DNA of 64,000 bases from positions 483,160 to 547,159 of the forward strand of contig CBDCGC010000002.1 of assembly GCA_965216585.1 (NCBI GenBank), read 5' to 3'. Below, in pieces: positions 12,701-60,597 of the stretch. This DNA comes from an uncultured Candidatus Binatia bacterium. Its GTDB lineage: Bacteria > Desulfobacterota > Binatia > HRBIN30 > CADEER01. Position 1 is the stretch's first letter, and each line of letters begins with the position of its first letter. The notes beneath the pieces are model-generated. The model saw nothing but the letters and a program-made list of their open reading frames with translations. It was not told the DNA's origin and made no database searches. The position numbers and the translations under genes are program-made.

Positions 12701-12712
12701 TCGGCGCTTCGC

Positions 12713-13066: not shown

Positions 13067-13072
13067 GGCGTG

Positions 13073-15442: not shown

Positions 15443-16252
15443 TCAATCACATTGCAAAGAAAGAGCCTCCTCGATCCACGCCGCGAGTCTGCCTGCAATA
15501 ACCTCGACCCGGACTCCGTGTTCGTTAGAGTTTTCGTCGAACTTGGAAATGGAAACCAGCCAACAGCGCGTGGCCCAACGGAATTCCGTGTAGCGGTGCG
15601 GGCGTGGAAAAAACCGCCTTTCCCACAGCGCGGCCAGGTCGCCACGAAATCCGCGCAACACCTCGGGCGTAGCCTCGGAGCGAATCGCGGCGATCGGGCC
15701 AGTCGCGTCGTTGTATCGACGCATATTGACCTCCGCATGAGCTGAGCGACCCCAATCGCAAGTGAAGGAGTAGCGTCCGTTGGGCAAGTCAGCGGCAAGG
15801 CGCGCTGTTGAGCACGCGGTAGCTGTCGCGCCCAAGAACCGTTGCCACAGCGGATTGTCGAGGTCGGGCGTCGGCATGGAGGTCCGCGTAACCGTAGGCC
15901 AAGGCGTGAGCGTGATAGTCGGCGTGGCCGTTGGTGTCGGCGTTGGGCAACCGTTCAGGGATGCACGGACCGCCGCGATGATCTCAGAGATTGAGATCTT
16001 CCGATCAAAATCGAGATCGCTCGCCGAACACACGGCGTCACTACCGAGTGCGATGCCAATAGTGCGTGTGAGTTCAGCAACGGATACATCTCCGCTTCCG
16101 TTGCAGTCACCTGGACAGGCTGTGAGGGGGTGTGGCGAGAGTCCCAGTGTGACTGCCAACGCGATAAACACTCGGCTCCAACAAAATCGAGACTCACAAC
16201 GCTGCGACATCTTTGATCCCACGATTGCTTGCCTGACCCATGGCAGTGTCAT
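15443..16252 (-). CDS. Secreted protein with N-terminal dockerin-like Ca-binding repeat and a PT linker (hypothetical)
   Basis: Signal-like N-terminus, CPGDCNGSGDVSVAELTRTIGIALG, linker PTPTPTATPTITLTPWPTVTRT, then an unassigned ~150-aa domain. Confidence 0.5.
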   Translation of the reverse strand: MTLPWVRQAIVGSKMSQRCESRFCWSRVFIALAVTLGLSPHPLTACPGDCNGSGDVSVAELTRTIGIALGSDAVCSASDLDFDRKISISEIIAAVRASLNGCPTPTPTATPTITLTPWPTVTRTSMPTPDLDNPLWQRFLGATATACSTARLAADLPNGRYSFTCDWGRSAHAEVNMRRYNDATGPIAAIRSEATPEVLRGFRGDLAALWERRFFPRPHRYTEFRWATRCWLVSISKFDENSNEHGVRVEVIAGRLAAWIEEALSLQCD

Positions 16253-16401
16253 TGCTGACTACACGCAGGAAACGAACACGAGAACTGATACAGGCTCTCA
16301 CACTTGCCCGTATGGATTGCAAGGCCGATCCTTCAGGACTGTCCGGGTGGCAGCTGCACAGGCTAAATTGGCTTGAGGGAAATCGGGACAGACCCCTCTC
16401 C

Positions 16402-33982: not shown

Positions 33983-34066
33983 TCGCGATTGCTTCGCCGC
34001 GGGCAGAGCTTTTGTGAGCAGAGTTTTTGTGATTGACGTGATTCGGCTTCACCCGTACCGTGTCGC

Positions 34067-35509
34067 ATGTTCGTTCGCGTTTTGGCGCCGCTGCGCCGTT
34101 GGGTCGGCTGCGTGCTGTACGCGGCGGCGCTGCTTTCCCTGCTGGCTCCGGCACACCTGGTGCAATCAGCTCTGGCGGTTTCCCCGGTACCACTGGCGCG
34201 CCATAGCGGCGCTCGCTTCGACGGGCGAGCGCTGTCGATGGGTCTGACGCCGGCCGCCAGCGCGGTTCGGCGCCACCTCGGTCGCGCGAGTGACGGCAGG
34301 GCGATGAGCGTCGCCACATCGTCGGCGACGGCGCATCCATTGGCGTCGCCGATCTTTTTTCGCCAAGCCAGCGAATACCGTCTCGAGGACGACGTCGTCG
34401 CCGAATACGAGCTGGTGATCGGCCACAGTGGCGGTCGCGTCTGGATCGAATCGATCGACCGTTTCCCCGAAGCGACGGTCGGCAGCGAGGGGCTGCTGGC
34501 TCGGCTCGCTGGCGTCGAGATCCGCCGCACCATCGAGTTTGAAATGACCGGCTTCGAGTGGATGATCGAACGCGTCGTCGCGGCGGCGAACACCGACGCG
34601 AATCGTCACGCCGTGCTGGCGGCCATGCTCGAGGCGGGCGAGATCACCCACGGCGAGCTGCGCGACAGCGTTACCATCACCGAAGCTGACGGCGCCTCGA
34701 TCGTCATGCCGTCGGCGGATTTTTCGCTCGCTTCCTTCTTCGCCGGCCAAGGTAGCGGAGCGATTTCGGGCTGCGTCGTCGATTGTTTCGCCGAGATCGG
34801 TACGGCAATCACGGTTTTCGGCGCTCTGTGTTTGATCGCCGGCGCCGCCGTCTGCGGCGTCGCCTGTGCCGTTTCCGCCGGCGTTGCCTGTATTCCCTGC
34901 ATCAGTGGCGCCAGCCTCGCCTGCGGGCTTGGCGCCGCCGTCGGCTCGGTTGGCACCTGTCTCGCCTTCTGCATTTTCGGCGTCCGCCCGCCACCGACAC
35001 CGACGCGGCGTCCCTCGACGCGGACGCCAACACCGAATCGGGGAATCGCTTATACGGTCATCCCCGAATCTACCTCAATTGCAGTGGGTGAGGATTTTGA
35101 AGTTTCCTGGTCGGCTTCAGGTGCGCACTCCAACCGGGATTGGATCGCTCTCTATACGCCGAGCGCAGACAACCGTACCTTTATGGACTGGTCGTACATC
35201 TCGAGCGCAACCTCGGGGACGATCACGCTGACCGCACCGACCGACCCCGGCAGCTACGAGCTTCGCTTGCTCTTGGACAATGGATACCTGGAACCACTGC
35301 AACCAGCCCGCACGACGATTGTAGTGGAAGACCTCGAGCCGGGTGATTGCGACGGCGATTCGCGCATCACCATCAGTGAGTTGATCTTTGGTATCGGCAT
35401 TGCTCTCGGCCGCAACGATCTCTCGAATTGTCGGGACTTCGACGGCAACGGCAACGGCCGCGTCGACATCGCCGAGCTCATCCGCGCCGTGCGCGCGGCC
35501 TTGGGATAG
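34067..35509 (+). CDS. Secreted/membrane protein with Cys/Gly-rich segment, PT linker and C-terminal dockerin-like repeat pair (hypothetical)
   Basis: 480 aa. C-terminal GDCDGDSRITISELIFGIGIALG...DFDGNGNGRVDIAELIRAVRAALG. Confidence 0.5.
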   Translation: MFVRVLAPLRRWVGCVLYAAALLSLLAPAHLVQSALAVSPVPLARHSGARFDGRALSMGLTPAASAVRRHLGRASDGRAMSVATSSATAHPLASPIFFRQASEYRLEDDVVAEYELVIGHSGGRVWIESIDRFPEATVGSEGLLARLAGVEIRRTIEFEMTGFEWMIERVVAAANTDANRHAVLAAMLEAGEITHGELRDSVTITEADGASIVMPSADFSLASFFAGQGSGAISGCVVDCFAEIGTAITVFGALCLIAGAAVCGVACAVSAGVACIPCISGASLACGLGAAVGSVGTCLAFCIFGVRPPPTPTRRPSTRTPTPNRGIAYTVIPESTSIAVGEDFEVSWSASGAHSNRDWIALYTPSADNRTFMDWSYISSATSGTITLTAPTDPGSYELRLLLDNGYLEPLQPARTTIVVEDLEPGDCDGDSRITISELIFGIGIALGRNDLSNCRDFDGNGNGRVDIAELIRAVRAALG

Positions 35510-43495: not shown

Positions 43496-45979
43496 ATGGT
43501 GCAGGGTGAGCGGGTGACACGTATTCGCGGTACCGTCTTCCTCTTCTGCTCCGGCCTGGTCACCCTCGTCTACGAGGTTCTGTGGCTGCGCCAGCTCGGT
43601 CATCTCTTCGGCGTCAGCGCCCACGCGACGGCGACCTGCCTGGCCGTCTTCTTCTCCGGTATGGCGCTCGGCCAGGCGATCGCGGCGCGCCGTTGCGCCG
43701 CGCTGGCGTCGCCGCTGCGCACCTACGGGCTGCTCGAAATCGCCGCCGCAGCGGCGGCCTTGCTGGCGCTCTACTTGCCCGACATCTACCGCGCTCTCTA
43801 CGTCCTGCCGGCCGGCGACACCGGTTTCGGCGCCCACGCCACCCGCATCGCTCTGGCGGCCGTCGTCTTGCTGCCGCCGGCGGCGCTGCTCGGTGCGACC
43901 TTGCCGGTGATGGTGGAAGCGGAGACCCGCCACCTCGGCAACGCCCGCTTGCGCGCCACCGCGCTCTACTTCGCCAACACCGCCGGTGGCGTCGCCGGCG
44001 CTTGCCTGGCCGCCTTCTGGCTGGTGCCGGCGCTCGGCTACTACGCCTCCTACCTGGTCGCCGTCATCGCCGGTGCGTCGATCGGCGCCGCCGCCCTGGC
44101 CAGCGCCGGGCAGGCGCCGGCGGCCAAGCCAGTTGGCGCGGCACTGGCGCCGCCGCCGGCATCCCTGCGCTTGTCCGCCGTCGCCTTCGTCTCCGGCGCC
44201 CTCGCCCTGGCGATGGAGGTGATCTGGACGCGCATGCTGGCGCAGGTACTGCACAACTCGGTCTTCTCCTTCGCCGCCGTGCTCGCCGTGTTGCTGCTGG
44301 CTCTGAGCCTCGGCGCCGGCATCGTTCACCTGGCGCTGCGGCGCTGGCCGGCACCGCCGGCCGGCATCCTCGCCGGCCTCTTCGCCGCCGCCGCCGTCGC
44401 CTGCGCCGCCTCGGCGCTGGTCTTTCAGGCGCAGACCGACGGCCTGGCCTATCTGGGTGGCGACGCCGACTGGGCGTCGTACATGGTCGACGTCTTCAGC
44501 CTTGCCGCCGCCGTGATGTTGGTGCCGGGAGCGTTGCTCGGCGCCATCTTGCCGTACGCCGTGGCGCTGCTGGCGGGCGGCGACGCCATGCCCGGCCTGC
44601 GCGTCGGCCGCCTGATCGCCAGCAACACCGCCGGCTCGGTGATCGGCTCGCTGCTCGCCGGCTTCGCACTCCTGCCGGCATTGGACCTGTGGCCCGCCTT
44701 GCTCGCCGTCGCCGCTCTCTACGCCATCGGCGCCGCGCTGTTCACACCGCGACCGGCCGGCGTCGCCGCCGCCGTCGTCGCTCTCTTCCTCCTCTTTGTT
44801 CCGCTCGACCCGCGCGGTCTGCGCCGCGTCGACTTCGACCCGCACGGTGAGACGGTTCTCGAAGTCGTCGACTCGGCGGCCGGCACGGTTGCCGTCGTCC
44901 AGCGCGGCGACGTCGTCGCCCTGCGGCTCAACAACAGCTACACCGTCGGCACCAACGCCAACATCGTCAACGACCGGCGCAAGGCCGATCTACCCCTTCT
45001 CCTGCACCGGCGACCGCGCTCGGTCTTCTTCCTCGGCATGGGTGCCGGCATCACCGCGGCGGCCGCCCTCGACCACCCGCTGAGCAGCATCACGACTTGC
45101 GAGCTGGTACCGGAGATTGCCCGTCTCGCCGCTAAATATCTGCCCGAACAAAGCGGGCGACTGAGCAGCGATCCGCGCTCGCGCGTCGTCGCCGGCGACG
45201 GCCGCCACTATCTGGCGCGCAGCCGCGAGCGCTTCGACGTCATCATCGCCGACCTCTTCGTTCCCTGGCACAGCGGCGCCGGCGCTCTCTACTCGATCGA
45301 GCACTTCGCCAACGTCCGCCAGCGGCTCGGCGACGGCGGCCTCTTCGCCCAGTGGTTGCCGCTCTACCAGATGTCGCGGCAGGAGTTGGAGATCATCGCC
45401 CGTACCATGCTCGAGGTCTTCCCGCGCGTCACCCTGTGGCGCGGCGACCTGCTGCCGCGCTCGCCGGCCATCGCCCTGATCGGCCATGCCGGCGACCAGC
45501 CCCTCGATCTCCGCGACGTCCGCCGCAACGTCCGCCGCCGCATCGGCGAGCACGGCGCCGACGCCGCCGTCACCGACGCCCTGGCGCTGCTCTTCTACGC
45601 CGGCAACCTCAGCCAGGCGCGCCAGCTCTTCGCCGCCGCACCGATCAACAGCGACGATCGCCCGATCATCGAGCACGGCGCGCCGATCACCCAACGGCGC
45701 GTCAAAGCCGGGCAGGGCGCCTGGCTGACCTCGCTCGAGCTGCTGCGCTTCTACGCCGAGCTCGCCGCCGCCGTGCCGCCCGAGCGCGACGCCTTCCTAC
45801 ACAATCTCGACCATCGTCAGATCGAGTATCCGAAAGCGGGGAGGGACCTCTACGCAGCCTCCGTTCACCGCGACACCGGCGATTTTCGCCAGGCCGAGAT
45901 TGCGCTGGAGGCCTTTCGCCAGCGCGTGCCTGCGGAAGTGGTCGAGATCTTTGCCCAGCGAATCCCGTCGATAAAATAG
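43496..45979 (+). CDS. Fused multi-pass membrane domain / spermidine-synthase-like (PABS) protein with C-terminal extension
   Basis: 827 aa. N-terminal ~12 TM helices, then PABS-like core (TCELVPEIARLA...FDVIIADLFVPW) and an ~200-aa C-terminal helical region. Confidence 0.65.
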   Translation: MVQGERVTRIRGTVFLFCSGLVTLVYEVLWLRQLGHLFGVSAHATATCLAVFFSGMALGQAIAARRCAALASPLRTYGLLEIAAAAAALLALYLPDIYRALYVLPAGDTGFGAHATRIALAAVVLLPPAALLGATLPVMVEAETRHLGNARLRATALYFANTAGGVAGACLAAFWLVPALGYYASYLVAVIAGASIGAAALASAGQAPAAKPVGAALAPPPASLRLSAVAFVSGALALAMEVIWTRMLAQVLHNSVFSFAAVLAVLLLALSLGAGIVHLALRRWPAPPAGILAGLFAAAAVACAASALVFQAQTDGLAYLGGDADWASYMVDVFSLAAAVMLVPGALLGAILPYAVALLAGGDAMPGLRVGRLIASNTAGSVIGSLLAGFALLPALDLWPALLAVAALYAIGAALFTPRPAGVAAAVVALFLLFVPLDPRGLRRVDFDPHGETVLEVVDSAAGTVAVVQRGDVVALRLNNSYTVGTNANIVNDRRKADLPLLLHRRPRSVFFLGMGAGITAAAALDHPLSSITTCELVPEIARLAAKYLPEQSGRLSSDPRSRVVAGDGRHYLARSRERFDVIIADLFVPWHSGAGALYSIEHFANVRQRLGDGGLFAQWLPLYQMSRQELEIIARTMLEVFPRVTLWRGDLLPRSPAIALIGHAGDQPLDLRDVRRNVRRRIGEHGADAAVTDALALLFYAGNLSQARQLFAAAPINSDDRPIIEHGAPITQRRVKAGQGAWLTSLELLRFYAELAAAVPPERDAFLHNLDHRQIEYPKAGRDLYAASVHRDTGDFRQAEIALEAFRQRVPAEVVEIFAQRIPSIK

Positions 45980-46216: not shown

Positions 46217-48391
46217 ATGGCGTACAAGGCTTTGCTTGCTACATCGCTGTGGACGCTCAGCCTTCTCGGCGAGCCGCTGCTGGCCCACCCGGTGAGCGGG
46301 AATCTGGCGAGCAACTGTCGCATCGTGGCGACCAACTCGAGTATCAGCGTCTATTTGGACGTCGACAACACCACAGAACAGCAAGCCAAGAACCTCACCG
46401 CGGGCCTGCTCGATGGAACTAATATCGGCGACGCCTCGGTTTTCATCAACGTCACTCCAGGTCGACAGACCATCTTGCCCGGCAAGCGCAAGACCTTTCG
46501 CTGGCGTGGCGAGATTTTCGGCAACGGATTTCTCGATCTGACCGTCAGTGTCACCGGCACCTGGGACGACGGGGATCCGGCGACGACGGGTTTGGTGAAC
46601 TGCCCGCGACTGACGGTCGGCGATCCGGCCAGCCTGACGCCGCCGCCGACCAACACGGAGGCGATCCAGCCGACCTTCGGCTCGCAGCCGACGGCGACAC
46701 CGAGTCGCCGCGACCGGCGCGACACGCCGGTGCCGGTCACCCGCGCACCGACCAACACGCGGCGGCCGACGCGCACACCGATTCCGCCGCGACCGACGCG
46801 CACGCGCATCCCGACCAGCACGCGGCGGCCGCCGAGCACACCGATCGAACGCGATACTCCTGGTGACAACCGGCCGACGCGCACTCCCGACATCGGCGGT
46901 GAGCCGACACCGGAACGCCGCGTTCGACCGACCCGCACACCGATCGTCGGCCGCGCGACGCGCACGCCGATTGGCGGGAGGGCGACCCGTACACCGGTGC
47001 CGCAGCGGCCGACCCGCACGCCGATCCAGCTGCGGCCGACGCGCACGCCGCGCGGCGCCAACGTGCTGCCGACCGTGCCGCGCGAAGGGCAGGTTCCGGC
47101 CGAGGTGGTCGGCCGTCTGACCGCCAACTGCAGCCTGCGCCAGACCAACGATCAGATTGCCGTTCGCATGGTCGTGCAAAACACCACCGCCGTCATGGTC
47201 ACCGATCTCGCCGCCAGCTTTCTCGACCTGACGCCGGAGGGCGGTGCGCTCTTCTTCGACCCGACCGGGCCGAGTCCGCGTTCGTACGGCATCTTCGCAC
47301 CGGGCGACAGCGTCGTCTTCGAGTGGGGCGGCCGTATGAACGACGTCGGCGTCATCGGTTTCGCAGCATCCGTCGCCGGTACGTCGCCGGGCGGCAACCC
47401 GGTCATCAGCGGACTCATCGACTGCGGTTTTGGCTCGGGGCCGAACGGCTCCTTCGACAGCTCGCTGTTCACCGGTTCGTGTAGCATCCGCACCGGCCGC
47501 GGCGGCGCCGTCACGCTGCTCATCAACAACCGCAGCGGCGAGCCGATGTCCGAAATCGATCCGCGCTTGATCGACACCTCGTCGACCGGCACGGCGCAGG
47601 TCAATAGCCTGCGCGGTCCGGCGCCGCGGCGCCTGCGCCGGCTCGCCGGCGGTCAAACCCAGGAGTTTCTCTGGGAAGCCGATGTCCTCGGCAGCGGCAA
47701 CGTGAGCATGACGTTCCAGGCCGATGGCACGGTCGAGAGCGGTGACCGCATCAGCACGCCGACGATCACCTGCTCGACCGAGCTGGCGGCCACCGGCGGC
47801 TTGCCCGATCTCTCTGTCGACGAGCTCGATCAGCGCGGCTCCTGGGTCGTCGAAGAGCAGTTCTTCGGCCCCGGTCACTGCGCTCTCTTCGAAGGCTGTG
47901 TCGGCGGCAGCGGGGTGCGCCGGCTGCTCAAGTTCAACACGACGACACCCAACCACGGCCCCGGCGACCTCTTCCTCGGCGATCCGACCAACAATCCGGA
48001 GTTCATCTTCTCCGAGTGCCACCAGCACTTCCACTTCGAGGATTACGCCATCTATCGCCTGCTCGACATGAACGGCAATCAGGTGGCGCAGGGGCACAAG
48101 CAGGCCTTCTGCCTGGTCGACCTGTGGCGCCCGCCGGGCTCCAACGGTGCCCGCAACCCGGGCTTCCCCGACTGCGGTTTTCAGGGCATCAGCGCCGGCT
48201 GGGCCGACGTCTACCACCGCGATCTGGACTGCCAGTGGATCGACATCACCAACGTCCCGGACGGCCGCTACATCCTCGAGGTCCACATCAACCCGGCCCG
48301 GGTGGTGCAGGAATCGAACTACGCGAACAACATCGCGCGCAACGAGGTGTGCATCGGCATCCCAGAGGACGACGGCTGTGCGCGATTCTGA
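46217..48391 (+). CDS. Secreted lysyl oxidase (LOX) family protein: signal peptide, three Cys-bracketed ~110-aa domains, PTRTP-rich linker, C-terminal LOX catalytic domain
   Basis: C-terminal ~170 aa: CHQHFH (48016-48033), GHKQAFCLVD (Lys 48097-48099), VYHRDLDCQWIDITNV (Tyr 48212-48214), ILEVHINP...ESNYANNIARN. These align with animal LOX WEWHSCHQHYH / GHKASFCLED / TYGADIDCQWIDITDV / ILKVSVNP...ESDYTNNVVRC. Start taken at MAYKALLATSLWTLSLL (signal peptide). Confidence 0.8.
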   Translation: MAYKALLATSLWTLSLLGEPLLAHPVSGNLASNCRIVATNSSISVYLDVDNTTEQQAKNLTAGLLDGTNIGDASVFINVTPGRQTILPGKRKTFRWRGEIFGNGFLDLTVSVTGTWDDGDPATTGLVNCPRLTVGDPASLTPPPTNTEAIQPTFGSQPTATPSRRDRRDTPVPVTRAPTNTRRPTRTPIPPRPTRTRIPTSTRRPPSTPIERDTPGDNRPTRTPDIGGEPTPERRVRPTRTPIVGRATRTPIGGRATRTPVPQRPTRTPIQLRPTRTPRGANVLPTVPREGQVPAEVVGRLTANCSLRQTNDQIAVRMVVQNTTAVMVTDLAASFLDLTPEGGALFFDPTGPSPRSYGIFAPGDSVVFEWGGRMNDVGVIGFAASVAGTSPGGNPVISGLIDCGFGSGPNGSFDSSLFTGSCSIRTGRGGAVTLLINNRSGEPMSEIDPRLIDTSSTGTAQVNSLRGPAPRRLRRLAGGQTQEFLWEADVLGSGNVSMTFQADGTVESGDRISTPTITCSTELAATGGLPDLSVDELDQRGSWVVEEQFFGPGHCALFEGCVGGSGVRRLLKFNTTTPNHGPGDLFLGDPTNNPEFIFSECHQHFHFEDYAIYRLLDMNGNQVAQGHKQAFCLVDLWRPPGSNGARNPGFPDCGFQGISAGWADVYHRDLDCQWIDITNVPDGRYILEVHINPARVVQESNYANNIARNEVCIGIPEDDGCARF

Positions 48392-48568
48392 GAAAATACA
48401 CAAATCCGCAGAATTCGGGAGAAAGTTCTTGACTGCGGGAGTGAAAATTGAGTAGTTTGCGACCATCGTTCTATAGTATCGGAATTGGGGGACTAGAGAT
48501 CTTGCGAAAAACTGCTGACATTTTCGAAACTTACGGGAATTCAGCGGCGATTTGCAGGTTCCTAGATC

Positions 48569-48576
48569 AAGGAGGA
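48569..48576 (+). promoter_or_regulatory. Shine-Dalgarno AAGGAGGA, 8 nt upstream of the ATG at 48585
   Basis: Strong consensus RBS within a 190-bp lower-GC intergenic region. Confidence 0.6.
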
Positions 48577-48584
48577 CAGCTCAT

Positions 48585-50105
48585 ATGACGAAACTGCGAT
48601 TGGCTCAGGTCACGCTTTTGAGCGTGGCCATCGCGGTATTCACCGTGGGGAGTGCGGGGGCGCAAGCAGTCCGCACGCGGAAACCCACCAAGACACCACG
48701 TCCGACTCGCACGCAGATCGTAGATCAGGCGAGGACGCGCAAGCCGACCAAGACGTCGCGGCCTACCCGCACGCAAGTGATCGACCAGGCGCGCACCCGC
48801 AAGCCGACCAAGACCTCGCGGCCGACTCGCACGCAGATCGTCAAAGATCTGCGCACGCGCAAGCCGACCAAGACCTCGCGGCCGACTCGCACGCCGATCG
48901 TCAAAGATCTGCGCACCCGCAAGCCGACCAAGACCTCGCGGCCGACCCGTACGCCGATCGTCAAAGATCTGCGCACGCGCAAGCCGACCAAGACCTCGCG
49001 GCCAACTCGTACGCCGATCATCAAGGACGTGCGCACGCGCAAGCCAACCAAGACCTCGCGGCCGACCCGTACGCCGCTGAGTGTCGAGGTGAGGACGCGC
49101 AAGCCGACCAAGACGCAACGGCCGACTCGCACGCCGATTCTCAAAGAGGTGAGGACGCGCAAGCCGACCAAGACCTCGCGGCCGACCCGCACGCCGATCA
49201 GCTTGGATGTACGCACGCGCAAGCCGACCAAGACACAGCGGCCGACCCGTACGCCGATCGTCAAAGATGTGCGCACGCGCAAGCCGACCAAGACGCAGCG
49301 GCCGACTCGTACGCCGATCATCAAAGACGTGCGCACGCGCAAGCCGACCAAGACGATGCGTCCGACTCGTACGCCGATCTCAAACGAGATCCGCACGCGC
49401 AAGCCGACCAAGACCTTGCGGCCGACCCGTACGCCGATTCTCAAAGAGGTGAGGACGCGCAAGCCGACCAAGACCTTGCGGCCGACCCGTACGCCGGTCT
49501 CGAACGAGATTCGCACACGCAAGCCGACCAAGACACTGCGGCCGACTCGTACGCCTTTCATCAAGAACGAGAGAACGCGCAAGCCGACCAAGACCCTGCG
49601 GCCGACTCGTACGCCAGTTTCGAACGAAGCCCGCACGCGCAAGCCGACCAAGACCCTGCGGCCGACCCGTACGCCTGCACCTCTCGAGGCCCGCACGCGC
49701 AAACCGACCAAGACCCTGCGGCCGACTCGCACGCCGGTTCCCGAGGAAGCGCCTGAGGCGTTCGATCCTAGCGACGTGACTGCTCGGTGCTATGCCAGCA
49801 ACAAGGGTGGTCCCGACGGCAAGAAGGATCTCGTCCGCATCCTGATGCAGGTGTCAAACCGCTCTGGCGCGGCCGTCCGAGTTAGCGCCGGTGGAATCGA
49901 CATCAGTGGCTCTGGCAACTATGAGCCAGTTACTGGCGCGGCAGGGAATTCAAAACCCGTCAGAAGCTCGGTGGTCCTCTCTTGGACAATTCGAGTTCGC
50001 GGAACGCTCAGCGTGACGGCTACTGCGAATGCATCGGGCCCGAATGGCGAGCAGATTCCGTTGTCAGCCGACTGCGGGAGTGTGACAGGAGCACCTGCTC
50101 TCTAA
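48585..50105 (+). CDS. Secreted Lys/Arg/Thr/Pro-rich tandem-repeat protein: 18 x 20-aa repeats RTRKPTKTxRPTRTPIxKDV plus a C-terminal Cys-bracketed ~110-aa domain
   Basis: Signal peptide MTKLRLAQVTLLSVAIAVFTVGSAGAQA. Repeats have perfect 60-nt periodicity. C-terminal domain resembles the Cys-bracketed domains of the upstream LOX protein. Confidence 0.75.
   Translation: MTKLRLAQVTLLSVAIAVFTVGSAGAQAVRTRKPTKTPRPTRTQIVDQARTRKPTKTSRPTRTQVIDQARTRKPTKTSRPTRTQIVKDLRTRKPTKTSRPTRTPIVKDLRTRKPTKTSRPTRTPIVKDLRTRKPTKTSRPTRTPIIKDVRTRKPTKTSRPTRTPLSVEVRTRKPTKTQRPTRTPILKEVRTRKPTKTSRPTRTPISLDVRTRKPTKTQRPTRTPIVKDVRTRKPTKTQRPTRTPIIKDVRTRKPTKTMRPTRTPISNEIRTRKPTKTLRPTRTPILKEVRTRKPTKTLRPTRTPVSNEIRTRKPTKTLRPTRTPFIKNERTRKPTKTLRPTRTPVSNEARTRKPTKTLRPTRTPAPLEARTRKPTKTLRPTRTPVPEEAPEAFDPSDVTARCYASNKGGPDGKKDLVRILMQVSNRSGAAVRVSAGGIDISGSGNYEPVTGAAGNSKPVRSSVVLSWTIRVRGTLSVTATANASGPNGEQIPLSADCGSVTGAPAL
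48669..49748 (+). repeat. 18 tandem copies of a 60-bp coding repeat
   Basis: Unit approx cgcacgcgcaagccgaccaagacctcgcggccgac(c/t)cg(c/t)acgccgatcgtcaaagatctg, with third-position and C-terminal codon variation. Confidence 0.9.
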
Positions 50106-50143
50106 AGCGGACTGTTCGAGCTGCCTTCCTTGAGAAGGGTGAA

Positions 50144-50178
50144 AGGGTCAGGCCTTCCGGGTCTGGCCCTTTCTTTTT
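50144..50178 (+). terminator. Putative intrinsic terminator after the repeat-protein gene
   Basis: agggtcaggcc-ttccg-ggtctggccct forms an 11-bp stem (2 G-U pairs) with a 5-nt loop, followed by TTCTTTTT. Confidence 0.45.
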
Positions 50179-50284
50179 GTGGCAGCAGTCGTTCAGAGCA
50201 CGGGCGGGCTTTGTCGACGCCTTCGCTTCTCTTTGTTTCACGCCTTTGTTATCTTCATCGTCAAACTCCAGGCGGGAGCACTCG

Positions 50285-51781
50285 ATGCGCGTACGAATTC
50301 TCGGGCTTTACTCTCTAATTGCGTTTCTCCTGCTGGCGGCGAGCGCGGTGGCGCAGACGCCCAGCGTGACGCCCACCCCGGGGGGCGACTGTTGCTCGAT
50401 TCACCCCGGGCCGAGCTGCGACATTCCGGCTTGTGCGGCCTGTGTCTGCGAAGACCAGGAAGAGCCTCTGTGCTGTGTCGACGGCAGTCCGGAGGGCTGG
50501 GATCGCATCTGTCTCGCCTTTGCCGAGAGTGACGACTGTGCCGAGGTCTGTTTGTGCGGCGAGCCGCCGACGCCGACGCCGACGCCGGGTGGTGACTGCT
50601 GCTTGCCGCACGCCGGTAGCCGCTGCGACGACGAAGCGTGTACGACCTGCGTCTGCGACCGCGACAGCAACTGCTGCACGGGACCTTGGGACGCGTTCTG
50701 CGTCGAGTCGGCGCGTACGGTCGACGAGTGCGCGGGCGAGTGCTCGGATTGTATGCCGCTGCCGACCATCCCGCCGCTGGCGACGCCGACGCCCGGACCT
50801 TGTTGCGAAGGCCGCGATCTCAATCCCGGTTGCGATGAGAGTATGTGCGAGAGCTGCGTCTGCGCCGTCGACGCAAACTGCTGCCTCGACACCTGGGACG
50901 AGCTCTGCGCCGTCATCGCGGTCGAGGAGTGCGCCATCGATTGCGTCTGCGTCGAGGACGGCGACTGCTGTAGCGGACACGACGGTTTTGGTTGCAATGA
51001 CCGGCGTTGTCAGGAGTGTGTCATCGCCCTCGATCCGGAATGTGGCGAGCAGTGGGACGACGACTGCGCATCGGAGGCGCGGCTCGAGTGCGCGCTCGAC
51101 TGCACCTGTGGCGATTGCTGCGCCGAGAATCCGGACGAGGTACCGGGCTGCGGCGTCAAACCCTGCCAAGACTGCGTTTGCGAGATCGACGAGGAGTGCT
51201 GCACGGAGCTGTGGGATGCGCAATGCGACTCGATCGCTCGCGATGAATGCTCGCTCGACTGTCCGTGCTTGAACTGCTGCGAGGAACAGGTGGTTCCGGG
51301 CTGCGGTGAGAAGGAGTGTCAGACCTGTGTCTGCGCCCTCGATGCGAATTGCTGCGATGAAGTATGGGACGGCATCTGTGCCGCCCGCGCCGTCGAAGAG
51401 TGCGACCGCCGCTGCGAGTGCGAGGCCGGCAGCAACTGTTGTATCGCCCGGCCGACCGAGACGGGTTGCGACGAAAGCGCCTGCGAAGCGTGTGTCTGCG
51501 GCGTCGACGATTTCTGCTGCACCGACCTGTGGGATTCCACCTGCTCGGACGAGATCACCGTCAACGAGTGCGCCGCCGAATGCTCATGTGATCCTGGGAG
51601 CTGTGTCGGCGATTGCGATGGCGACGGCGAAGTCTCGATCGGTTCGCTCATCCGCTGCGTCGGCGTCGCCCTCGGCAACTCTCCGGTCAGCGAGTGCCGC
51701 GCCTGCGATGCCGATGGAGACGGCGAGGTCTCGATCGGCGAGCTCATCCAGGCCGTCGGCAACGCCCTCGAGGGCTGCTGA
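50285..51781 (+). CDS. Secreted Cys-rich repeat protein: 7 x ~52-aa 10-Cys repeats plus C-terminal dockerin-like pair
   Basis: Signal peptide MRVRILGLYSLIAFLLLAASAVA. Repeat pattern CC-x6-8-GC-x3-C-x2-CVC-x4-CC-x3-WD-x2-C-x8-EC-x3-C-x-C. PTPTPG linkers. C-terminal CVGDCDGDGEVSIGSLIRCVGVALG...CDADGDGEVSIGELIQAVGNALEGC. Confidence 0.7.
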   Translation: MRVRILGLYSLIAFLLLAASAVAQTPSVTPTPGGDCCSIHPGPSCDIPACAACVCEDQEEPLCCVDGSPEGWDRICLAFAESDDCAEVCLCGEPPTPTPTPGGDCCLPHAGSRCDDEACTTCVCDRDSNCCTGPWDAFCVESARTVDECAGECSDCMPLPTIPPLATPTPGPCCEGRDLNPGCDESMCESCVCAVDANCCLDTWDELCAVIAVEECAIDCVCVEDGDCCSGHDGFGCNDRRCQECVIALDPECGEQWDDDCASEARLECALDCTCGDCCAENPDEVPGCGVKPCQDCVCEIDEECCTELWDAQCDSIARDECSLDCPCLNCCEEQVVPGCGEKECQTCVCALDANCCDEVWDGICAARAVEECDRRCECEAGSNCCIARPTETGCDESACEACVCGVDDFCCTDLWDSTCSDEITVNECAAECSCDPGSCVGDCDGDGEVSIGSLIRCVGVALGNSPVSECRACDADGDGEVSIGELIQAVGNALEGC

Positions 51782-51826: not shown

Positions 51827-52174
51827 AAGGGTGGTGTCGCGCCGCGAGACGTTCGAGGGTTCACCGCCGCAATCCAGATAGCCGGGTTAGCCGATCCCAG
51901 CCCGGTTCACCGGGCTTTCTTCCCTCAGCCGTGGGCTTCAGCCCTCGGCTGTTTGCACGCACACATTCACTCGTTTCCCACCCGCCGCCGAGCGCTGAAG
52001 CGCCCGGCTCAAATCGTCAAAGCCCCTGCGGGGCTGAAACGAAGGGTGGTGTCGCGCCGTCGGGCCGCGAGACGCTCGAGGTTTCACCGCCGCAATCCAG
52101 ATAGCCGGTAGCCGATCCCAGCCCGGTTCACCGGGCTTTCTTCCCTCAGCCGTGGGCTTCAGCCCTCGGCTGTT
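51827..52174. repeat. Two ~127-132-bp direct repeats (51827-51953, 52043-52174) in a convergent intergenic region
   Basis: aagggtggtgtcgcgccg...ttcaccgccgcaatccagatagccgg..cccggttcaccgggctttcttccctcagccgtgggcttcagccctcggctgttt. Contains the cccggttcaccggg palindrome. Confidence 0.7.
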
Positions 52175-52175
52175 T

Positions 52176-52485
52176 GTCCGTACACGTCTCCGCCCGCCGC
52201 TGCGAATGCGGAGGCTCCGCTCTATTGGCCGGCGGTTGTCCGTACACGTCTCCGCCCGCCGCTGCGAATGCGGAGGCTCCGCTCTATTGGCCGGCGGTCG
52301 TCCGTACACGTCTCCGCCCGCCGCTGCGAATGCGCAGGCGCCGCTCTATTGGCCGGCGGTTGCTCGCACACATCTCCGCCGGCCGCTACGAGGACGGAGA
52401 CCCCGCGCTCTGGGCCGGCGTTCGCGCACGTCTCCGCCCCCGGCTCCGTGTGCTAGGCCGCGCGCTATTGGCCGGTGGCGGCGTC
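52176..52485. repeat. ~5 tandem copies of a 62-bp hairpin-containing repeat
   Basis: gtccgtacacgtctccgcccgccgctgcgaatgcggaggctccgctctattggccggcggtt, with stem CTCCGC...GCGGAG. The last copy abuts or overlaps the 3' end of the minus-strand gene ending at 52465. Confidence 0.7.
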
Positions 52486-53451
52486 GAGTGCTTCGGGGGA
52501 GGGGACTCGGCCCTCGCGCCGCATCTTGAAGATCAGATCGGCAACGCGCGTCGCCACCTCGAGCTTGGCCGCTAGATCTACGTTGCGCTGGTGCTCGGCG
52601 TCGAGGGTCGACTGTAGGGCGAGGTTCTCGGTTTCGAGATCGCGGACGCGATCGGTCAGCCCACCGCCCTCCGCCCCTTGCAGGTTTGCGATGGTCGAGC
52701 GCAGCTCGGCTTCGCGCTTGCGACTGGCCTCGAGATCCTGCTGGATGGCCGCCATCAAGCGGCGCTGGTCTTCCTGCAGCTCGGCGACCTCGACCGGCAC
52801 CGCCGCCTCGACGACCGCGGGCTGTTGATCGAGGCGCACCTTGAGCTCGGCGTAGCGCTGCTCGAGATCGTCGCGCTCGCCGCGCTCGCGCTGGAGTTGC
52901 TGCCGCAGTTGCTCGATTTCTCCGCGCGCCTCCTCCAGGGCGGTCGCCGTCGCGGCGTCGAAGGGTCCGCTCGAGGTCTCCTCGCGCATGCGCGCCAACT
53001 GATCCTCGGCGGCGACGCGCCGGCTTCGTTCACTCGCCAGCTCGGTCTCGAGACGGGCGATCTGCGGCACCGGGTCGGCTTGGCCCGATTGGGCAGCGAG
53101 GGCCGCCTCGGTCGCGGCGCGAGCCTCGGACAGCTCGGCGCGCAGCGACTCGTTTTCGTTGCGCGCCTGAGAGAGAGCTGTGCTGAGCTCGCGCTCGCGT
53201 GCCTGCAGAGCGCTGACGGCCTCGGCCGCACCAGCGCCGGCGCCGCCACTGGACAGTTGTGTCTCGAGCTCGCGAATACGGCGTTGGGCGCGCGAAAGTT
53301 GCATGCGGATCGAGCGCACCCGGCCGCGGCCCATGCCACCTCTCAACACTGGCCCCGAGCCCGCCGACCGCTCGGCCACCGTGCAGGCGGACGTGAGGGT
53401 CAGAGGAATCAGCAGAAGCCAGGGTGTGAAAAACGCTCCACGTGTCTTCAT
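52465..53451 (-). CDS. Coiled-coil lipoprotein (hypothetical)
   Basis: Start MKTRGAFFTPWLLLIPLTLTSAC (lipobox). Remainder is heptad-rich (ELETQLS..., LRAELSEARAATEAAL...). N-terminal extension of the ORF runs across the REP array and is rejected. Confidence 0.55.
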   Translation of the reverse strand: MKTRGAFFTPWLLLIPLTLTSACTVAERSAGSGPVLRGGMGRGRVRSIRMQLSRAQRRIRELETQLSSGGAGAGAAEAVSALQARERELSTALSQARNENESLRAELSEARAATEAALAAQSGQADPVPQIARLETELASERSRRVAAEDQLARMREETSSGPFDAATATALEEARGEIEQLRQQLQRERGERDDLEQRYAELKVRLDQQPAVVEAAVPVEVAELQEDQRRLMAAIQQDLEASRKREAELRSTIANLQGAEGGGLTDRVRDLETENLALQSTLDAEHQRNVDLAAKLEVATRVADLIFKMRREGRVPSPEALDAATGQ

Positions 53452-53517: not shown

Positions 53518-53648
53518 GGGAGGGCGAGTCGCCTGACGAGCCGCCGGTCCCCCGACCCCAGCGGGAGGGCGAGTCGCCTGACGAGCCGCCGGTCCCCCGA
53601 CCCCAGCGGGAGGGCGAGTCGCCTGACGAGCCGCCGGTCCCCCAGAGC
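53518..53648. repeat. REP array, 3 x 46 bp, upstream of the RAYT gene
   Basis: gggagggcgagtcgcctgacgagccgccggtcccccgaccccagcg x2 plus a truncated third copy. Core GGCGAGTCGCC is near-palindromic. Confidence 0.8.
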
Positions 53649-53736
53649 CGTCGACCACCCCGGAACCATCACAACATCGAATGTCAACTCCCCATGCCGC
53701 CAGCGCAATCCGACCGGCACGCGTACCCTGACCCAC

Positions 53737-54207
53737 ATGCCGCATTCATCCCGCAAACGTCCCGCGGCATGGAACCCGCCGGAAAGCCTTACCGACTACA
53801 TCGTGTTCCTGACGGTATGCACGAAGCACCGCAAAGCCGCACTTGCGGACACCAAAGTTCACGCTGAGCTCGTGCGAATTTGGATGGACCAGCCATCTTG
53901 GCTGGTGGGCCGGTACGTCCTCATGCCCGATCACGTGCACTTGTTCTGCTCGCCCTCGATCTCGACAACGGTGCCGCTACCCGGTTGGGTTCGGTACTGG
54001 AAATCGCACCTGGCGCGTTCCGGTGTTTGCGGAACGCAGGTATGGCAGTCGGGATTCTGGGATACGCGGATACGCAGCGACGAGAGTTTCGAGGCGAAGT
54101 GGAGCTACGTTAGAGACAATCCGGTTCGCGCCGGGCTTTGCCGAAATGCAGACGAGTGGCCTTTTCAGGGGGAGATTTATCCTCTGAAGCGGCGAGAGGC
54201 GGATTGA
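53737..54207 (+). CDS. REP-associated tyrosine transposase (RAYT; IS200/IS605 TnpA-like HUH enzyme)
   Basis: 156 aa. HUH motif LMPDHVHLF and C-terminal catalytic Tyr context WSYVRDNPVRAGL. Flanked on both sides by REP arrays sharing a 24-nt core in inverted orientation. Confidence 0.7.
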   Translation: MPHSSRKRPAAWNPPESLTDYIVFLTVCTKHRKAALADTKVHAELVRIWMDQPSWLVGRYVLMPDHVHLFCSPSISTTVPLPGWVRYWKSHLARSGVCGTQVWQSGFWDTRIRSDESFEAKWSYVRDNPVRAGLCRNADEWPFQGEIYPLKRREAD

Positions 54208-54237: not shown

Positions 54238-54780
54238 TTGGGGTGTGTTCGGGTCGCCGGGTGGCTCGTCAGGCGACTCGCCCTCCCAAGACAAGAATGA
54301 CGGGGGTGTGTTCGGGTCGCCGGGTGGCTCGTCAGGCGACTCGCCCTCCCAAGACAAGAATGACGGGGGTGTGTTCGGGTCGCCGGGTGGCTCGTCTGGC
54401 GACTCGCCCTCCCAAGACAAGAATGACGGGGGTGTGTTCGGGTCGCCGGGTGGCTCGTCAGGCGACTCGCCCTCCCAAGACAAGAATGACGGGGGTTGTT
54501 CGGGTCGCCGGGTGGCTCGTCAGGCGACTCGCCCTCCCAAGACAAGAATGACGGGGGTTGTTTGGGTCGCCGGGTGGCTCGTCAGGCGACTCGCCCTCCC
54601 AAGACAAGAATGACGGGGGTTGTTTGGGTCGCCGGGTGGCTCGTCAGGCGACTCGTCCTCCCAAGACAAGAATGACGGGGGTTGTTCGGGTCGCCGGGTG
54701 GCTCGTCAGGCGACTCGCCCTCCCAAGACAAGAATGACGGGGGTTGTTCGGGTCGCCGGGTGGCTCGTCAGGCGACTCGC
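54238..54780. repeat. REP array, ~9 x 62 bp, downstream of the RAYT gene
   Basis: gggggtgtgttcgggtcgccgggtggctcgtcaggcgactcgccctcccaagacaagaatgac repeated head-to-tail. Contains ggctcgtcaggcgactcgccctcc, the reverse complement of the upstream array core. No unique spacers. Confidence 0.85.
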
Positions 54781-58727: not shown

Positions 58728-59426
58728 GTGGCCAAGGTGCTCGGCACATCGCCGGGCAGAGGGGGAAGGAGCTCCATGGCGAAGGATCGCATGGACCGCA
58801 AGGAACTGCGCCAACCGGATGAGTTCGTCACGGCGACCACCGGAGCGCTCGAGTGGGCTCGGAAACACGCCAACACGGTGCTCGCCGTGGCCGGCGGGCT
58901 GTTGGCCATCTTGCTGGGAATCGGTTTCTACAATTCGCAACAGGCGGCGCGCCTGCACGACTCCAACAGCGATCTGAGTAGTGGCTTGGCGTCGTTTCGC
59001 AGCGAAGACTTTGCCGTCGCTTCGACTCAGCTCGACCAGGTGGCGACGCAGTGGAAGAGCGAAGCGGTCGGACCGCTGGCCGGCGTCATGGCCGCCAACA
59101 GTCGGCTGCGCGCCGGCGATGCGGACGGCGCCATCGTGGCGCTGGGCGCGCTCGACGACGCCGGCTTGCCGCACTACATCCGCCAGCAGCGCGCGCTGGT
59201 CTGGGCGAGCGCGCTCGAAGCCAAGGGCGATTGGGCCGCGGCGGCGGCGAAGTACGCCGAGGCGGCGGCGGTCGAAGGCCCGTACAGCGGCGAAGCCCTG
59301 GTCGGTGAAGCGCGCAGCCGGGCGCGCAACGGCGACACCGATGCGGCGGCGAAGCTCTATCGCCGTATCGTCGAGGAATACCCGGATCGCCCGGACAGCA
59401 AGCTGTTGAGCGCCAAGCTCGGCTGA
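58728..59426 (+). CDS. Membrane-anchored TPR-like protein (YfgM-like, hypothetical)
   Basis: Single TM (VLAVAGGLLAILLGIGFY) then an Ala-rich helical repeat region. Start may be at 58776. Confidence 0.4.
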   Translation: MAKVLGTSPGRGGRSSMAKDRMDRKELRQPDEFVTATTGALEWARKHANTVLAVAGGLLAILLGIGFYNSQQAARLHDSNSDLSSGLASFRSEDFAVASTQLDQVATQWKSEAVGPLAGVMAANSRLRAGDADGAIVALGALDDAGLPHYIRQQRALVWASALEAKGDWAAAAAKYAEAAAVEGPYSGEALVGEARSRARNGDTDAAAKLYRRIVEEYPDRPDSKLLSAKLG

Positions 59427-59442
59427 TGCGGGAATTTCCTCG

Positions 59443-60597
59443 ATGTCCGATAAGATTGATTATGTAAAGTTAGAAATGGACTCCGCTGTGGTTGGCTCCC
59501 TTCCCCTGGTGTCGCGGAATCTAAAGACTTTTTGGCGGATTTCCGCCCTCTGCCTGGTCATTGCCGGCGCTCCCGCGAATCTGCCTGCCGAACAGGCCTG
59601 TACGGGTGATGCCGATCGCGACGGCGCCGTGCGTATCGCCGAGTTGATCCAGGCGGTCGGCAACGCGCTCGAGGGCTGCGAAGAGATTCCGGGTACCTGC
59701 AACGGCGACGCGAACTGCGACGGCGTCGTCGCCATCAACGAGCTCATTCTGGCGGTCGGCTACGCGCTCGACGGCTGTCCGCTGGCGCGCGCCGTCAGCG
59801 TCGCCTGGCTCGAGCAGGCGCTCGACCGCACCGACGTGCAGATCATCGACGCCCGTGTCGGCGGCTTCGCGGGTGGCCACATCCCCGGCGCCCTGCCCCT
59901 GTCACCGTATATGTTGGCGGCGCCTTCCGGCGGTGTCGATTTTCAGATCCTCGAAGCCGAGAGCGCCGCCATGGTGCTGAGCGAGGTCGGCCTGCGCAGC
60001 GATGCCATCGCCGTCGTCTACGGCGCCGCACCCGAGTTCGACCCGGCGCGCGTCGTCTGGGCGCTCGAATACCTCGGCCACGCCGACGTGCGCTACCTCG
60101 ACGGTGGTTTCGCGGCCTGGCAGGCGGCGGGCGCGGATGTCGCCGCTGGCGAGCCGGTGCCCGCGCCCGCTTCGTCCTATCCGGTGGCGATACGCGAGCA
60201 GCTTCGCGTCACCAGCGACTGGGTACTCGAGCAGCTCGGCGATGCACCGTACGAGAACCCGGCCATTCAGGTCGTCGACGCCCGCTCGCCGGCCGAGTAC
60301 GCGATGGGAATCATCCCCACCGCCGTGCACCGGCAGTGGACGATCAATCTCGACGGCGGACTCCTGCTGCCGCGCGCCGACCTCGACGCGCTCTACGCCG
60401 ATCTCGACAAGGCGCGCACGACGGTCGTCTACTGCCTCGCCGGCTGGCGCGCGTCGTTCGCCTGGCTGACGCTCGCCGGTCTCGGTTTCGAAGACGTCAG
60501 AGTCTACGACGGCTCGTGGCTGGAATGGGGCAACGGCGAGTTCCCGGTTCACGTTCCACCGACGGTCGGCAACGTTGCCGTATCGGCGGACTTCTGA
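59443..60597 (+). CDS. Tandem-rhodanese thiosulfate sulfurtransferase with N-terminal dockerin-like repeat pair
   Basis: N-terminal CTGDADRDGAVRIAELIQAVGNALEGC...CNGDANCDGVVAINELILAVGYALDGC. Two rhodanese domains, the second with active-site VVYCLAGWRAS. Confidence 0.7.
   Translation: MSDKIDYVKLEMDSAVVGSLPLVSRNLKTFWRISALCLVIAGAPANLPAEQACTGDADRDGAVRIAELIQAVGNALEGCEEIPGTCNGDANCDGVVAINELILAVGYALDGCPLARAVSVAWLEQALDRTDVQIIDARVGGFAGGHIPGALPLSPYMLAAPSGGVDFQILEAESAAMVLSEVGLRSDAIAVVYGAAPEFDPARVVWALEYLGHADVRYLDGGFAAWQAAGADVAAGEPVPAPASSYPVAIREQLRVTSDWVLEQLGDAPYENPAIQVVDARSPAEYAMGIIPTAVHRQWTINLDGGLLLPRADLDALYADLDKARTTVVYCLAGWRASFAWLTLAGLGFEDVRVYDGSWLEWGNGEFPVHVPPTVGNVAVSADF

Follow-up and report, generated by a model that had tools for sequence, protein, structure and literature searches.

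A lysyl oxidase and an adjacent lysine-repeat protein in the Binatia: a candidate enzyme-substrate pair

In a 64,000-nt stretch of DNA from an uncultured soil bacterium of the class Binatia (the window), three open reading frames (ORFs), all on the + strand and spanning 46.2-51.8 kb, encode a secreted lysyl oxidase (LOX; gene 1), a secreted protein built of lysine-bearing tandem repeats (gene 2) and a secreted Cys-rich protein (gene 3). We propose, tentatively and at somewhat less than even likelihood, that the lysyl oxidase oxidises the repeat lysines to give a covalently cross-linked extracellular protein layer, the genes forming a Binatia-specific module around the enzyme. The locus itself is a real observation and no artefact, and is better supported than it was from the sequence alone; gene 3 is its weaker member. 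The original prediction, made from the letters of the window, described three consecutive co-directional genes that all encode signal-peptide proteins, and this was confirmed. Signal peptides were assessed by eye (n-region, hydrophobic core and AxA-like site); those of gene 2 (cleavage after …GSAGAQA, before V) and gene 3 (after …ASAVAQ, before T) are clear, and that of gene 1 is weaker, yet conserved among homologs. The G+C content at the locus (62-67%) is the same as in the remaining window, giving no compositional hint of a recent transfer.

The lysyl oxidase and the lysine-repeat protein

Gene 1 (46217..48391, +; alternative upstream starts at 46157 and 46169) encodes a multidomain protein of 724 amino acids. 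Residues 566-710 match Pfam PF01186 (Lysyl_oxidase) with E=4e-36 and 125 bits, against a cut-off of 20.4, and a phmmer comparison with human LOXL2 (5ZE3) gives E=1e-30. In the alignment with LOXL2, the copper site CHQHFH of gene 1, which holds the His triad H602/H604/H606 (48020-48034, +), is in register with CHRHYH. The two residues of the lysine tyrosylquinone (LTQ) cofactor are likewise aligned: K628 (48098-48100, +) in GHK628QAFCL with GHKASFCL, and Y666 (48212-48214, +) in DVY666HRDLDCQW with DMYRHDIDCQW. The LTQ precursors of LOXL2 are Lys653 and Tyr689 (PMC9694262), with which we equate K628 and Y666 from this alignment. Across 56 homologs, no change is seen at H602, H604, H606, K628 or Y666. 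An AlphaFold2 model of gene 1, built from a 56-sequence alignment, has a mean predicted local distance difference test score (pLDDT) of 79.8, and its top PDB matches in Foldseek are the LOXL2 chains 5ZE3_B and 5ZE3_A (E=1e-11). In summary, the comparisons show gene 1 to encode a predicted secreted Cu/LTQ-type lysyl oxidase with all the catalytic residues, which belongs to the LOX family on every sequence and structure criterion examined. The earlier description of a lysyl oxidase homolog with the His triad and both LTQ residues was thus borne out by the Pfam match as well as by the alignment of the catalytic residues with LOXL2.

The catalytic domain (residues 530-720; 47804..48376, +; pLDDT mostly >90) is preceded by a putative signal peptide (residues 1-24), three beta-sandwich domains and a long linker. 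Beta-sandwich A (residues 30-135; 46304..46621, +) is Cys-bracketed and all-beta in the model, and beta-sandwiches B (residues 300-410) and C (residues 418-525) lie together at 47114..47791 (+); all three have pLDDT values >90. Between A and B lies a Pro/Thr/Arg linker (residues 146-294; 46652..47098, +), which is disordered as judged from its pLDDT (<50), and which holds five RPTRTP motifs and 30 Arg but zero Lys. In the PDB, the beta-sandwiches find generic Ig-like matches only (adhesins, transglutaminase C-terminal barrels and integrin domains; Foldseek), and their identification as cohesins was rejected on this ground; no cohesin was among the top 50 structural matches, no search aimed at cohesins having been made. 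One LOX homolog of 594 amino acids (P0052) has an N-terminal Temptin_C match and a replaced His triad, with CRSWWVF instead of CHxHxHF, and may be catalytically inactive as judged from this motif.

Gene 2 (48585..50105, +) encodes 506 amino acids: a signal peptide (48585-48668, +), eighteen 20-residue units of the form VRTRKPTKTxRPTRTPxxxx (48669-49748, +) and a Cys-bracketed beta-sandwich domain of 118 residues (49749-50102, +). The unit has the consensus VRTRKPTKTSRPTRTPIVKE, one or two units reading, for example, VRTRKPTKTSRPTRTPIVKD, and Tandem Repeats Finder reports a period of 60 nt with 17.7 copies and 80% matches at 48673-49736. The RTRKPTKT motif occurs exactly 18 times at a 20-residue period, so that the predicted count of 18 near-identical repeats was exact. 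Fifty of the 506 residues are Lys, against an average of 2.9% for the window proteins, and 36 of these lie in RTRKPTKT; the earlier figure of 36 was therefore right for the motif. The composition is otherwise rich in Thr and Pro. As read from the equivalent linker of gene 1 (pLDDT <50), the repeat region is predicted to be disordered, and gene 2 is shown to be a secreted, disordered, strongly cationic Pro/Thr/Arg arm with an invariant Lys (two in this genome) every 20 residues.

Pfam and NCBIfam gave no meaningful match to gene 2, and NCBIfam has no model for the protein of gene 1, 2 or 3. A search of protein databases returned 14 proteins, with LOX proteins as the best matches; database relatives are Binatia-type repeat and LOX proteins only, and no homology to tropoelastin or collagen telopeptides was found. 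A profile of 11 repeat-protein C-terminal domains recovers the gene 1 beta-sandwiches B, C and A with E=7e-10, 1e-8 and 2e-6, respectively, the best of 2000 shuffled decoys reaching an E of 0.29. The two modules said to be common to genes 1 and 2 were hence both found again: the RPTRTP motif, five times in gene 1, and the Cys-bracketed domain, in three copies in gene 1 and one in gene 2. PT-rich, Arg-containing linkers are present also in other secreted proteins of the window, so the linker style alone is not specific, whereas the 20-residue unit and the domain homology are.

We examined the units of 19 distinct free repeat proteins (255 units). Position 5 is Lys in 254 units and Arg in one. 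Positions 2, 4 and 14 are mostly Arg and never Lys, and position 11 is Arg in 238 of the 255 and Lys in five. Positions 1, 8, 10 and 17-19 vary widely from genome to genome and inside single genomes; the sub-lineage of the window has Lys at position 8, where most others have Ser or Asn. From these alignments, the conserved state is one Lys per unit. Two lysines per unit in a fixed context, as originally described, therefore stand for this genome, and most orthologs keep one. Lys and Arg are thus not interchangeable at their respective positions, which speaks against a role in electrostatics alone. In 13 distinct window-type (Form-A) LOX orthologs, the homologous PT/R linker has zero Lys and 12-31 Arg each; in the window proteins, Lys makes up about 24% of the basic residues. 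Mature gene 2 has a net charge of +100, gene 3 one of -88 and the LOX domain one of -14.

Lysine is scarce in other secreted-looking window proteins (0.8% in gene 1, 0.4% in gene 3, 0% in the protein at 34037-35506 and 1.0% in that at 59410-60594, compared to 9.9% in gene 2). These values come from crude gene calls on a tiny sample of a single lineage (overall 2.9% Lys), and would fit a cell surface exposed to lysyl oxidase.

A crude gene caller based on the G+C content at third codon positions (GC3) favoured an antisense ORF over the repeats (48725-49732, -), which we rejected. The + frame is taken as the real gene 2 because of its promoter, Shine-Dalgarno sequence, signal peptide and in-frame folded domain, and because homologs are fused in frame to LOX. 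Long, high-GC3 antisense ORFs also lie over the repeat genes of the related loci L006 (12447-12989) and L088 (12511-14693). Public gene calls choose the antisense strand, so that lysine-repeat proteins are largely missing or under-represented in protein databases.

The sequence upstream of gene 2 was compared between the window (48392-48584) and the equivalent intergenic regions of loci L001-L016. A promoter-like site and leader (48429..48584, +) were recognised by their conservation across 14 distinct loci: TTGACT at 48429-48434 is followed 18 nt on by TAGTTT, and the leader of about 120 nt holds GGGGGAC and then a Shine-Dalgarno sequence, AAGGAGGA in the window and of the form GGGAGGA elsewhere. 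In the -35-like box, CTTGAC is kept in all 14 loci and TTGACT in 13 of them, L009 having TTGACC; the spacing, GGGGGA and the GGAGG core of the Shine-Dalgarno sequence are also conserved, three loci having a shorter GGAGG site. A promoter-scan match at 48448-48477 was considered less likely than the conserved TTGACT at 48429. An intrinsic terminator-like hairpin, with a 15-bp stem followed by TTTTT (50141..50173, +), lies 36 nt past the gene 2 stop codon. A conserved promoter of its own, a long leader, a strong Shine-Dalgarno sequence and a strong terminator are as expected for an abundant structural protein. Hence, gene 2 resembles a structural gene with its own, and probably strong, expression more than it does a member of a tight operon. 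In a longer type of gene 2 leader (about 155 nt), RNAalifold gives a long-range stem and a hairpin in which six of the 18 pairs are compensatory, a modelled and possible conserved RNA structure. An Rfam search of the whole window gave zero matches.

Related loci, natural fusions and the third gene

A search with gene 1 returned about 50 full-length homologs of 42-67% identity. In all inspectable contigs, the neighbourhood consists, in this order, of uvrB, LOX, the repeat protein, the Cys-rich protein, a coiled-coil lipoprotein on the opposite strand, TANGO2, a MoxR-type AAA protein and a VWA protein. About 19 distinct Binatia LOX loci were examined, with LOX identities reaching as low as 42-48%, and in each of them a free lysine-repeat gene lies directly 3' of LOX. 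In a scan with an alignment of the LOX domain, over one genome per GTDB species, 502 LOX loci were found, from which the best 10 and about 70 further loci were retrieved. The best 10 of the 502 carry the window-type architecture, some being titled 'Candidatus Binatia'; the remaining loci, about 70, are mostly labelled Myxococcota or Deltaproteobacteria and include Sorangium. Most of the myxobacterial LOX proteins (L018-L087) carry a Cys-rich C-terminal extension of about 120 residues or a tail of about 280-360 residues, and several have acidic, low-complexity N-terminal linkers of the type (GE)n or (DT)n.

The modules of genes 1 and 2 are also found in a single chain. Seven related proteins (P0054, P0055 and P0058-P0062) consist of a signal peptide, lysine repeats, one Cys-bracketed beta-sandwich and a LOX domain, with about 15-20 Lys-bearing units (ERTRKPTKTARPTRTPLV...). 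The genes for these fused LOX proteins occupy the same site after uvrB, and each is then followed by a free lysine-repeat gene. At L088, this free gene (12092-14557) has about 36 units, with 65 Lys in an 822-residue open frame, and is without a beta-sandwich; the locus has no Cys-rich gene. When metagenomes were scanned with the conserved coiled-coil lipoprotein as seed, more standard loci were recovered, together with a third locus type, L099. There, the sole gene between the lipoprotein gene and uvrB encodes one chain made up of a signal peptide, PT repeats with Lys (PKIPTSTPKPTRTPITPGSGN), a pair of DUF8252 repeats and a dockerin. In summary, the three modules (LOX, lysine arm and Cys-rich/dockerin) are shuffled among polypeptides at one locus, with the lysine arm as the constant element. 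By the Rosetta-stone argument, such fusions make it most probable that the separate window proteins work jointly. About 19 loci and the natural fusions have thus strengthened the evolutionary and functional link proposed between genes 1 and 2.

Gene 3 (50285..51781, +) encodes a very acidic, disulfide-rich protein of 498 amino acids with 88 Cys and 105 Asp+Glu. Its seven DUF8252-type repeats (50357-51595, +) follow the pattern CC..GC..C..CVC..D..CC..WD..C...EC...C.C, in agreement with the sevenfold Cys-rich repeat of the original prediction. They are followed by a putative dockerin-like double calcium-loop module (51596-51778, +) with two DxDGDGxVxIxELI segments, DCDGDGEVSIGSLI and DADGDGEVSIGELI. 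The Pfam scan gave a sub-threshold EF-hand_1 match (19.1 bits) and no Dockerin_1 match. The AlphaFold2 model (pLDDT 86.6) consists of small three-helix repeats with no PDB relative. Many gene 3 homologs have precomputed matches to PF26780 (DUF8252), described as 'faint' on L007, and the Pfam scan of gene 3, P0088 and P0152 gave none. At L092 (10727-13612, -), two tandem DUF8252/dockerin genes stand in place of one.

Two assignments of gene 3 were rejected. In the 'rusticalin/HGT marker' (horizontal gene transfer) Cys-rich type (PMC7379824; bioRxiv 10.64898/2026.06.07.730663), the pattern differs, being Gly/Pro-rich and defensin-like. Homology to the Cys-rich C-terminal extensions of the Myxococcota LOX proteins was dismissed since phmmer found none and the Cys patterns differ. 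Three unrelated secreted proteins encoded in the window (15446-16258, -; 34037-35506, +; 59410-60594, +), one of which is a rhodanese-domain protein, also carry the double DxDGDGxVxIxELI module at one end, N- or C-terminal. This distribution of sequence motifs suggests a lineage-wide anchoring or assembly system using dockerin-like modules.

Possible roles of the lysine arm

How might the enzyme act on its neighbour? Elastin is cross-linked by LOX via conserved Pro-/Ala-flanked lysines in repeated cross-linking domains (PMC12554196). Gene 2 has, by analogy only, what substrates of the elastin and collagen type have, namely conserved lysines in a repeated Pro-flanked motif (TRKPT) of a secreted protein. 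The lysyl oxidase, with its acidic catalytic domain, would convert the epsilon-amino groups of the repeat lysines into allysine aldehydes, and these would condense spontaneously with nearby lysines or allysines, as they do in elastin and collagen. The arms would then form a covalent mesh around the cell, whether as a sheath, a capsule or a matrix. The polyanionic, dockerin-bearing gene 3 protein could pair electrostatically with the polycationic arms, and, at loci that encode it, help to fix or arrange the layer. The linker of the enzyme, similar in style and without Lys, would keep the enzyme from being consumed; in the sister lineage, an enzyme bearing its own lysine arms would become part of the mesh. 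The oxidation and cross-linking steps draw on the established LOX chemistry on the conserved Pro-/Ala-flanked lysines of tropoelastin (PMC12554196). The more specific claim, that Binatia build an allysine-cross-linked, elastin-like extracellular polymer from a dedicated co-encoded lysine-repeat protein, with a LOX that shares domains with its substrate, is an argument by analogy, and we regard it as possible but rather doubtful.

Several points weigh against cross-linking of the repeat protein by the enzyme. This reading is a genomic inference in an uncultured lineage. The gaps of 193 nt between genes 1 and 2 and of 179 nt between genes 2 and 3, together with the terminator 3' of gene 2, indicate that there is no single tight operon. 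All the positive loci belong to one class and to one syntenic block (uvrB ... TANGO2-MoxR-VWA), so that adjacency alone is no proof of a functional link and could be explained by vertical inheritance. Genes 1 and 2 are partial paralogs, and a past duplication or fission could have left them side by side. No homolog of the gene 2 domain or of gene 3 was found in the 8 kb around about 70 Myxococcota LOX genes; nor did the non-Binatia loci (about 70) show any Lys-bearing repeat ORF by repeat autocorrelation, or a consistent Lys-rich neighbour with a filter of K >= 7%. The expected co-occurrence with LOX homologs in other genomes was therefore seen in Binatia (about 19 loci), whereas the roughly 70 Myxococcota loci lack either partner.

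The idea of a lysine-avoiding enzyme is weakened by the fused-type LOX proteins, whose own arms do carry Lys. At L099, there is no LOX between the lipoprotein gene and uvrB, and the same probably holds for the cut-off contig L098; a lysine arm can thus exist without an adjacent LOX, and may work without the enzyme unless a LOX lies elsewhere in the L099 genome. The place of gene 3 in the system is upheld in part: it is usually adjacent and, in L099, fused to lysine repeats, but it is missing from the fused-LOX loci, and its DUF8252 family is widespread without LOX. Its dockerin-like module is generic in this genome, being found on unrelated secreted proteins.

Gene 2 could instead be a targeting or tether arm, an extended spacer whose basic repeats bind an anionic surface (the gene 3 protein, an exopolysaccharide or lipopolysaccharide). 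It would hold the beta-sandwiches, and the LOX domain in the fused forms, away from the cell, in the way suggested for the disordered basic pro-region of animal LOX, and the enzyme would have a different target, for instance another protein or free amines. We judge this role unlikely, though a serious candidate. It would account for the repeat being a plain N-terminal region of the enzyme in the fused forms, for the charge of gene 2 complementing that of gene 3, and for the PT-rich, Arg-containing linkers on other secreted window proteins. It is also in line with L099, where the repeat is fused to dockerin-bearing Cys-rich repeats with no LOX at the site, and with the archaeal HTU-LOX, whose N-terminal segment modulates activity (PMC6452851). 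However, a tether leaves two observations unexplained, namely the non-exchange of Lys and Arg at their positions across 255 units and the Lys-free enzyme linker in 13 orthologs; moreover, the signal peptides look cleavable, so that the arm would be without an obvious membrane anchor.

An improbable alternative is that gene 2 arose by duplication or fission from the N-terminal half of a fused LOX, stays beside LOX only through vertical inheritance of the whole block, and now encodes a mucin-like protein of the surface or matrix, possibly O-glycosylated, that has no part in LOX chemistry. The homologous domains and linker of genes 1 and 2, the syntenic neighbourhood in all loci, the lack of the association at about 70 loci outside the Binatia, the independent promoter and terminator of gene 2 and its Thr/Pro-rich composition all fit such a history. 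Against it, the pairing outlasts at least three architectures of the site (separate genes; a LOX-repeat fusion with a second free repeat gene; a repeat-Cys-rich fusion), the full-length LOX identity drops to 42-48% across the paired loci, and the Lys-specific conservation would still need explaining. Taken jointly, the tether arm and the paralogous relic are about as likely as cross-linking of the repeat lysines.

The enzyme could also serve amine scavenging or H2O2 production, roles that have been proposed for HTU-LOX of archaea and for further amine oxidases acting outside the cell. In that case, the adjacent genes would encode surface proteins with no link to the enzyme, or the lysine arms would be sacrificed as an amine supply. 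HTU-LOX is promiscuous on small amines, with its native role unclear (PMC6452851), and in the window a fused MFS/spermidine-synthase gene lies just upstream. This gene is missing from the other loci, however, and the three beta-sandwiches and the long linker suggest a macromolecular or surface context, with the fusions binding the enzyme to the repeat; we therefore consider this role highly improbable. Very little weight can be given to a polyprotein precursor cut after each RTRK into 18 cationic Pro/Arg/Thr-rich 20-mers, like the proline-rich antimicrobial peptides from the precursors of apidaecin and drosocin: the dibasic-like RTRK at an exact 20-residue period and a composition recalling such PRP-type peptides invite the comparison, but K-P bonds are poor protease sites, the repeat of relatives is a linker to folded domains (LOX, beta-sandwich, Cys-rich/dockerin), and the locus lacks a conserved protease or exporter.

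Surrounding genes and relation to known systems

A coiled-coil lipoprotein gene with the lipobox LTSAC (52465..53451, -) is conserved at every related locus. It is convergent and just 3' of the LOX cluster in all three locus architectures, and in its product the motif ETSxGP is invariant and a segment ...RVxDLIFKM... is conserved at the C-terminal end. Between gene 3 and this gene lies an intergenic tandem array (52174-52475) of four copies of a 62-nt unit with 89% matches. On the other side, between uvrB and LOX, is a fused multi-transmembrane/spermidine-synthase-like gene (43496-45979, +; NCBIfam NF037959, MFS_SpdSyn), which was rejected as a member of the system since it is missing there in all other loci.

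Between the coiled-coil gene and TANGO2, in this genome only, is a small gene flanked by tandem arrays (53518-53643, +; 53734-54207, +; 54240-54780, -). The small gene has a sub-threshold match to an IS200-like Y1 transposase (21.5 bits, cut-off 23). The arrays consist of a 45-nt unit in 2.8 copies and a 62-nt unit in 8.7 copies with 98% identity; their unit sequences differ from that of the array at 52174-52475. Both share, in opposite orientation, the 25-nt core GGGAGGGCGAGTCGCCTGACGAGCC, which occurs in 11 copies against 0 expected by chance. The insertion looks like a transposase (RAYT) associated with repetitive extragenic palindromic (REP) sequences, with its REP arrays.

Lysyl oxidases have long been regarded as animal matrix enzymes. 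The Binatia enzyme shares with animal LOX/LOXL the catalytic family PF01186, the His triad, the LTQ Lys and Tyr, and the LOXL2 (5ZE3) fold. In both cases, the enzyme is secreted, and the candidate partner in Binatia is likewise secreted, repetitive and disordered, with conserved Pro-flanked lysines; KPTK recalls the paired lysines of the KP-type cross-linking domains of elastin (PMC12554196). Unlike elastin and collagen, to which it has no sequence homology, the Binatia partner is polycationic and Thr/Arg-rich and neither hydrophobic nor of the Gly-X-Y type. The enzyme and partner in Binatia share homologous domains and are adjacent or fused, whereas this is not so for animal LOX, and the Binatia LOX has no SRCR domains or BMP-1-type propeptide; the cross-links of the Binatia system are putative.

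Catalogues of bacterial and archaeal LOX homologs, mostly single-domain proteins, go back to 2015 (Grau-Bove et al. 2015, PMC4448552). The only characterised one is HTU-LOX from Haloterrigena, whose native function was called 'cryptic' (PMC6452851); the function of prokaryotic LOX in general is termed 'enigmatic' or 'cryptic', with no native substrate known (PMC6452851, PMC4448552). The Binatia enzyme has in common with those catalogued the LOX domain, the catalytic residues, the missing first animal-specific His and a bacterial distribution (PMC4448552, PMC6452851). In contrast to those proteins, which are mostly LOX-domain-only and come with no candidate protein substrate, it has three beta-sandwiches, a long linker and a conserved lysine-repeat neighbour. 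The phyla listed in these two studies (PMC4448552, PMC6452851) do not include Binatia. In the Myxococcota (e.g. Sorangium WP_012233967, PMC6452851), LOX is also tied to a disulfide-rich module, but this is C-terminally fused, has another Cys pattern and no match to gene 3, and is not accompanied by a lysine-repeat neighbour.

The likeness of gene 3 to cellulosomal type I dockerins lies in its duplicated calcium-binding loop-helix segment, although in Binatia the module is found on diverse secreted proteins of a Gram-negative-type lineage, with a Pfam EF-hand match that is sub-threshold only. Other bacterial systems of covalent cross-linking are the sortase-built pili and the Tgl transglutaminase of the Bacillus spore coat. 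The concept of a dedicated enzyme covalently polymerising secreted structural proteins is the same; the Binatia system would, however, use oxidative deamination of Lys to an aldehyde and not transpeptidation or isopeptide formation. The open-access literature yielded no paper joining Binatia and LOX and none on a prokaryotic LOX with a protein partner, in agreement with the original view that such a system has not been described.

The lysine-repeat neighbour offers a first candidate substrate of a bacterial lysyl oxidase that is accessible to experiment, and with it the role of prokaryotic LOX becomes directly testable with two recombinant proteins or one peptide. If the proposal is true, a prokaryotic LOX would for the first time be paired with its substrate, and LOX-based matrix cross-linking would exist outside eukaryotes. 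The modular arms and enzyme could be of interest as self-cross-linking biomaterials. Should the repeat lysines prove to be oxidised and cross-linked, this would establish the role of a prokaryotic LOX, define a new kind of bacterial extracellular material and inform the debate on whether matrix cross-linking by LOX predates animals.

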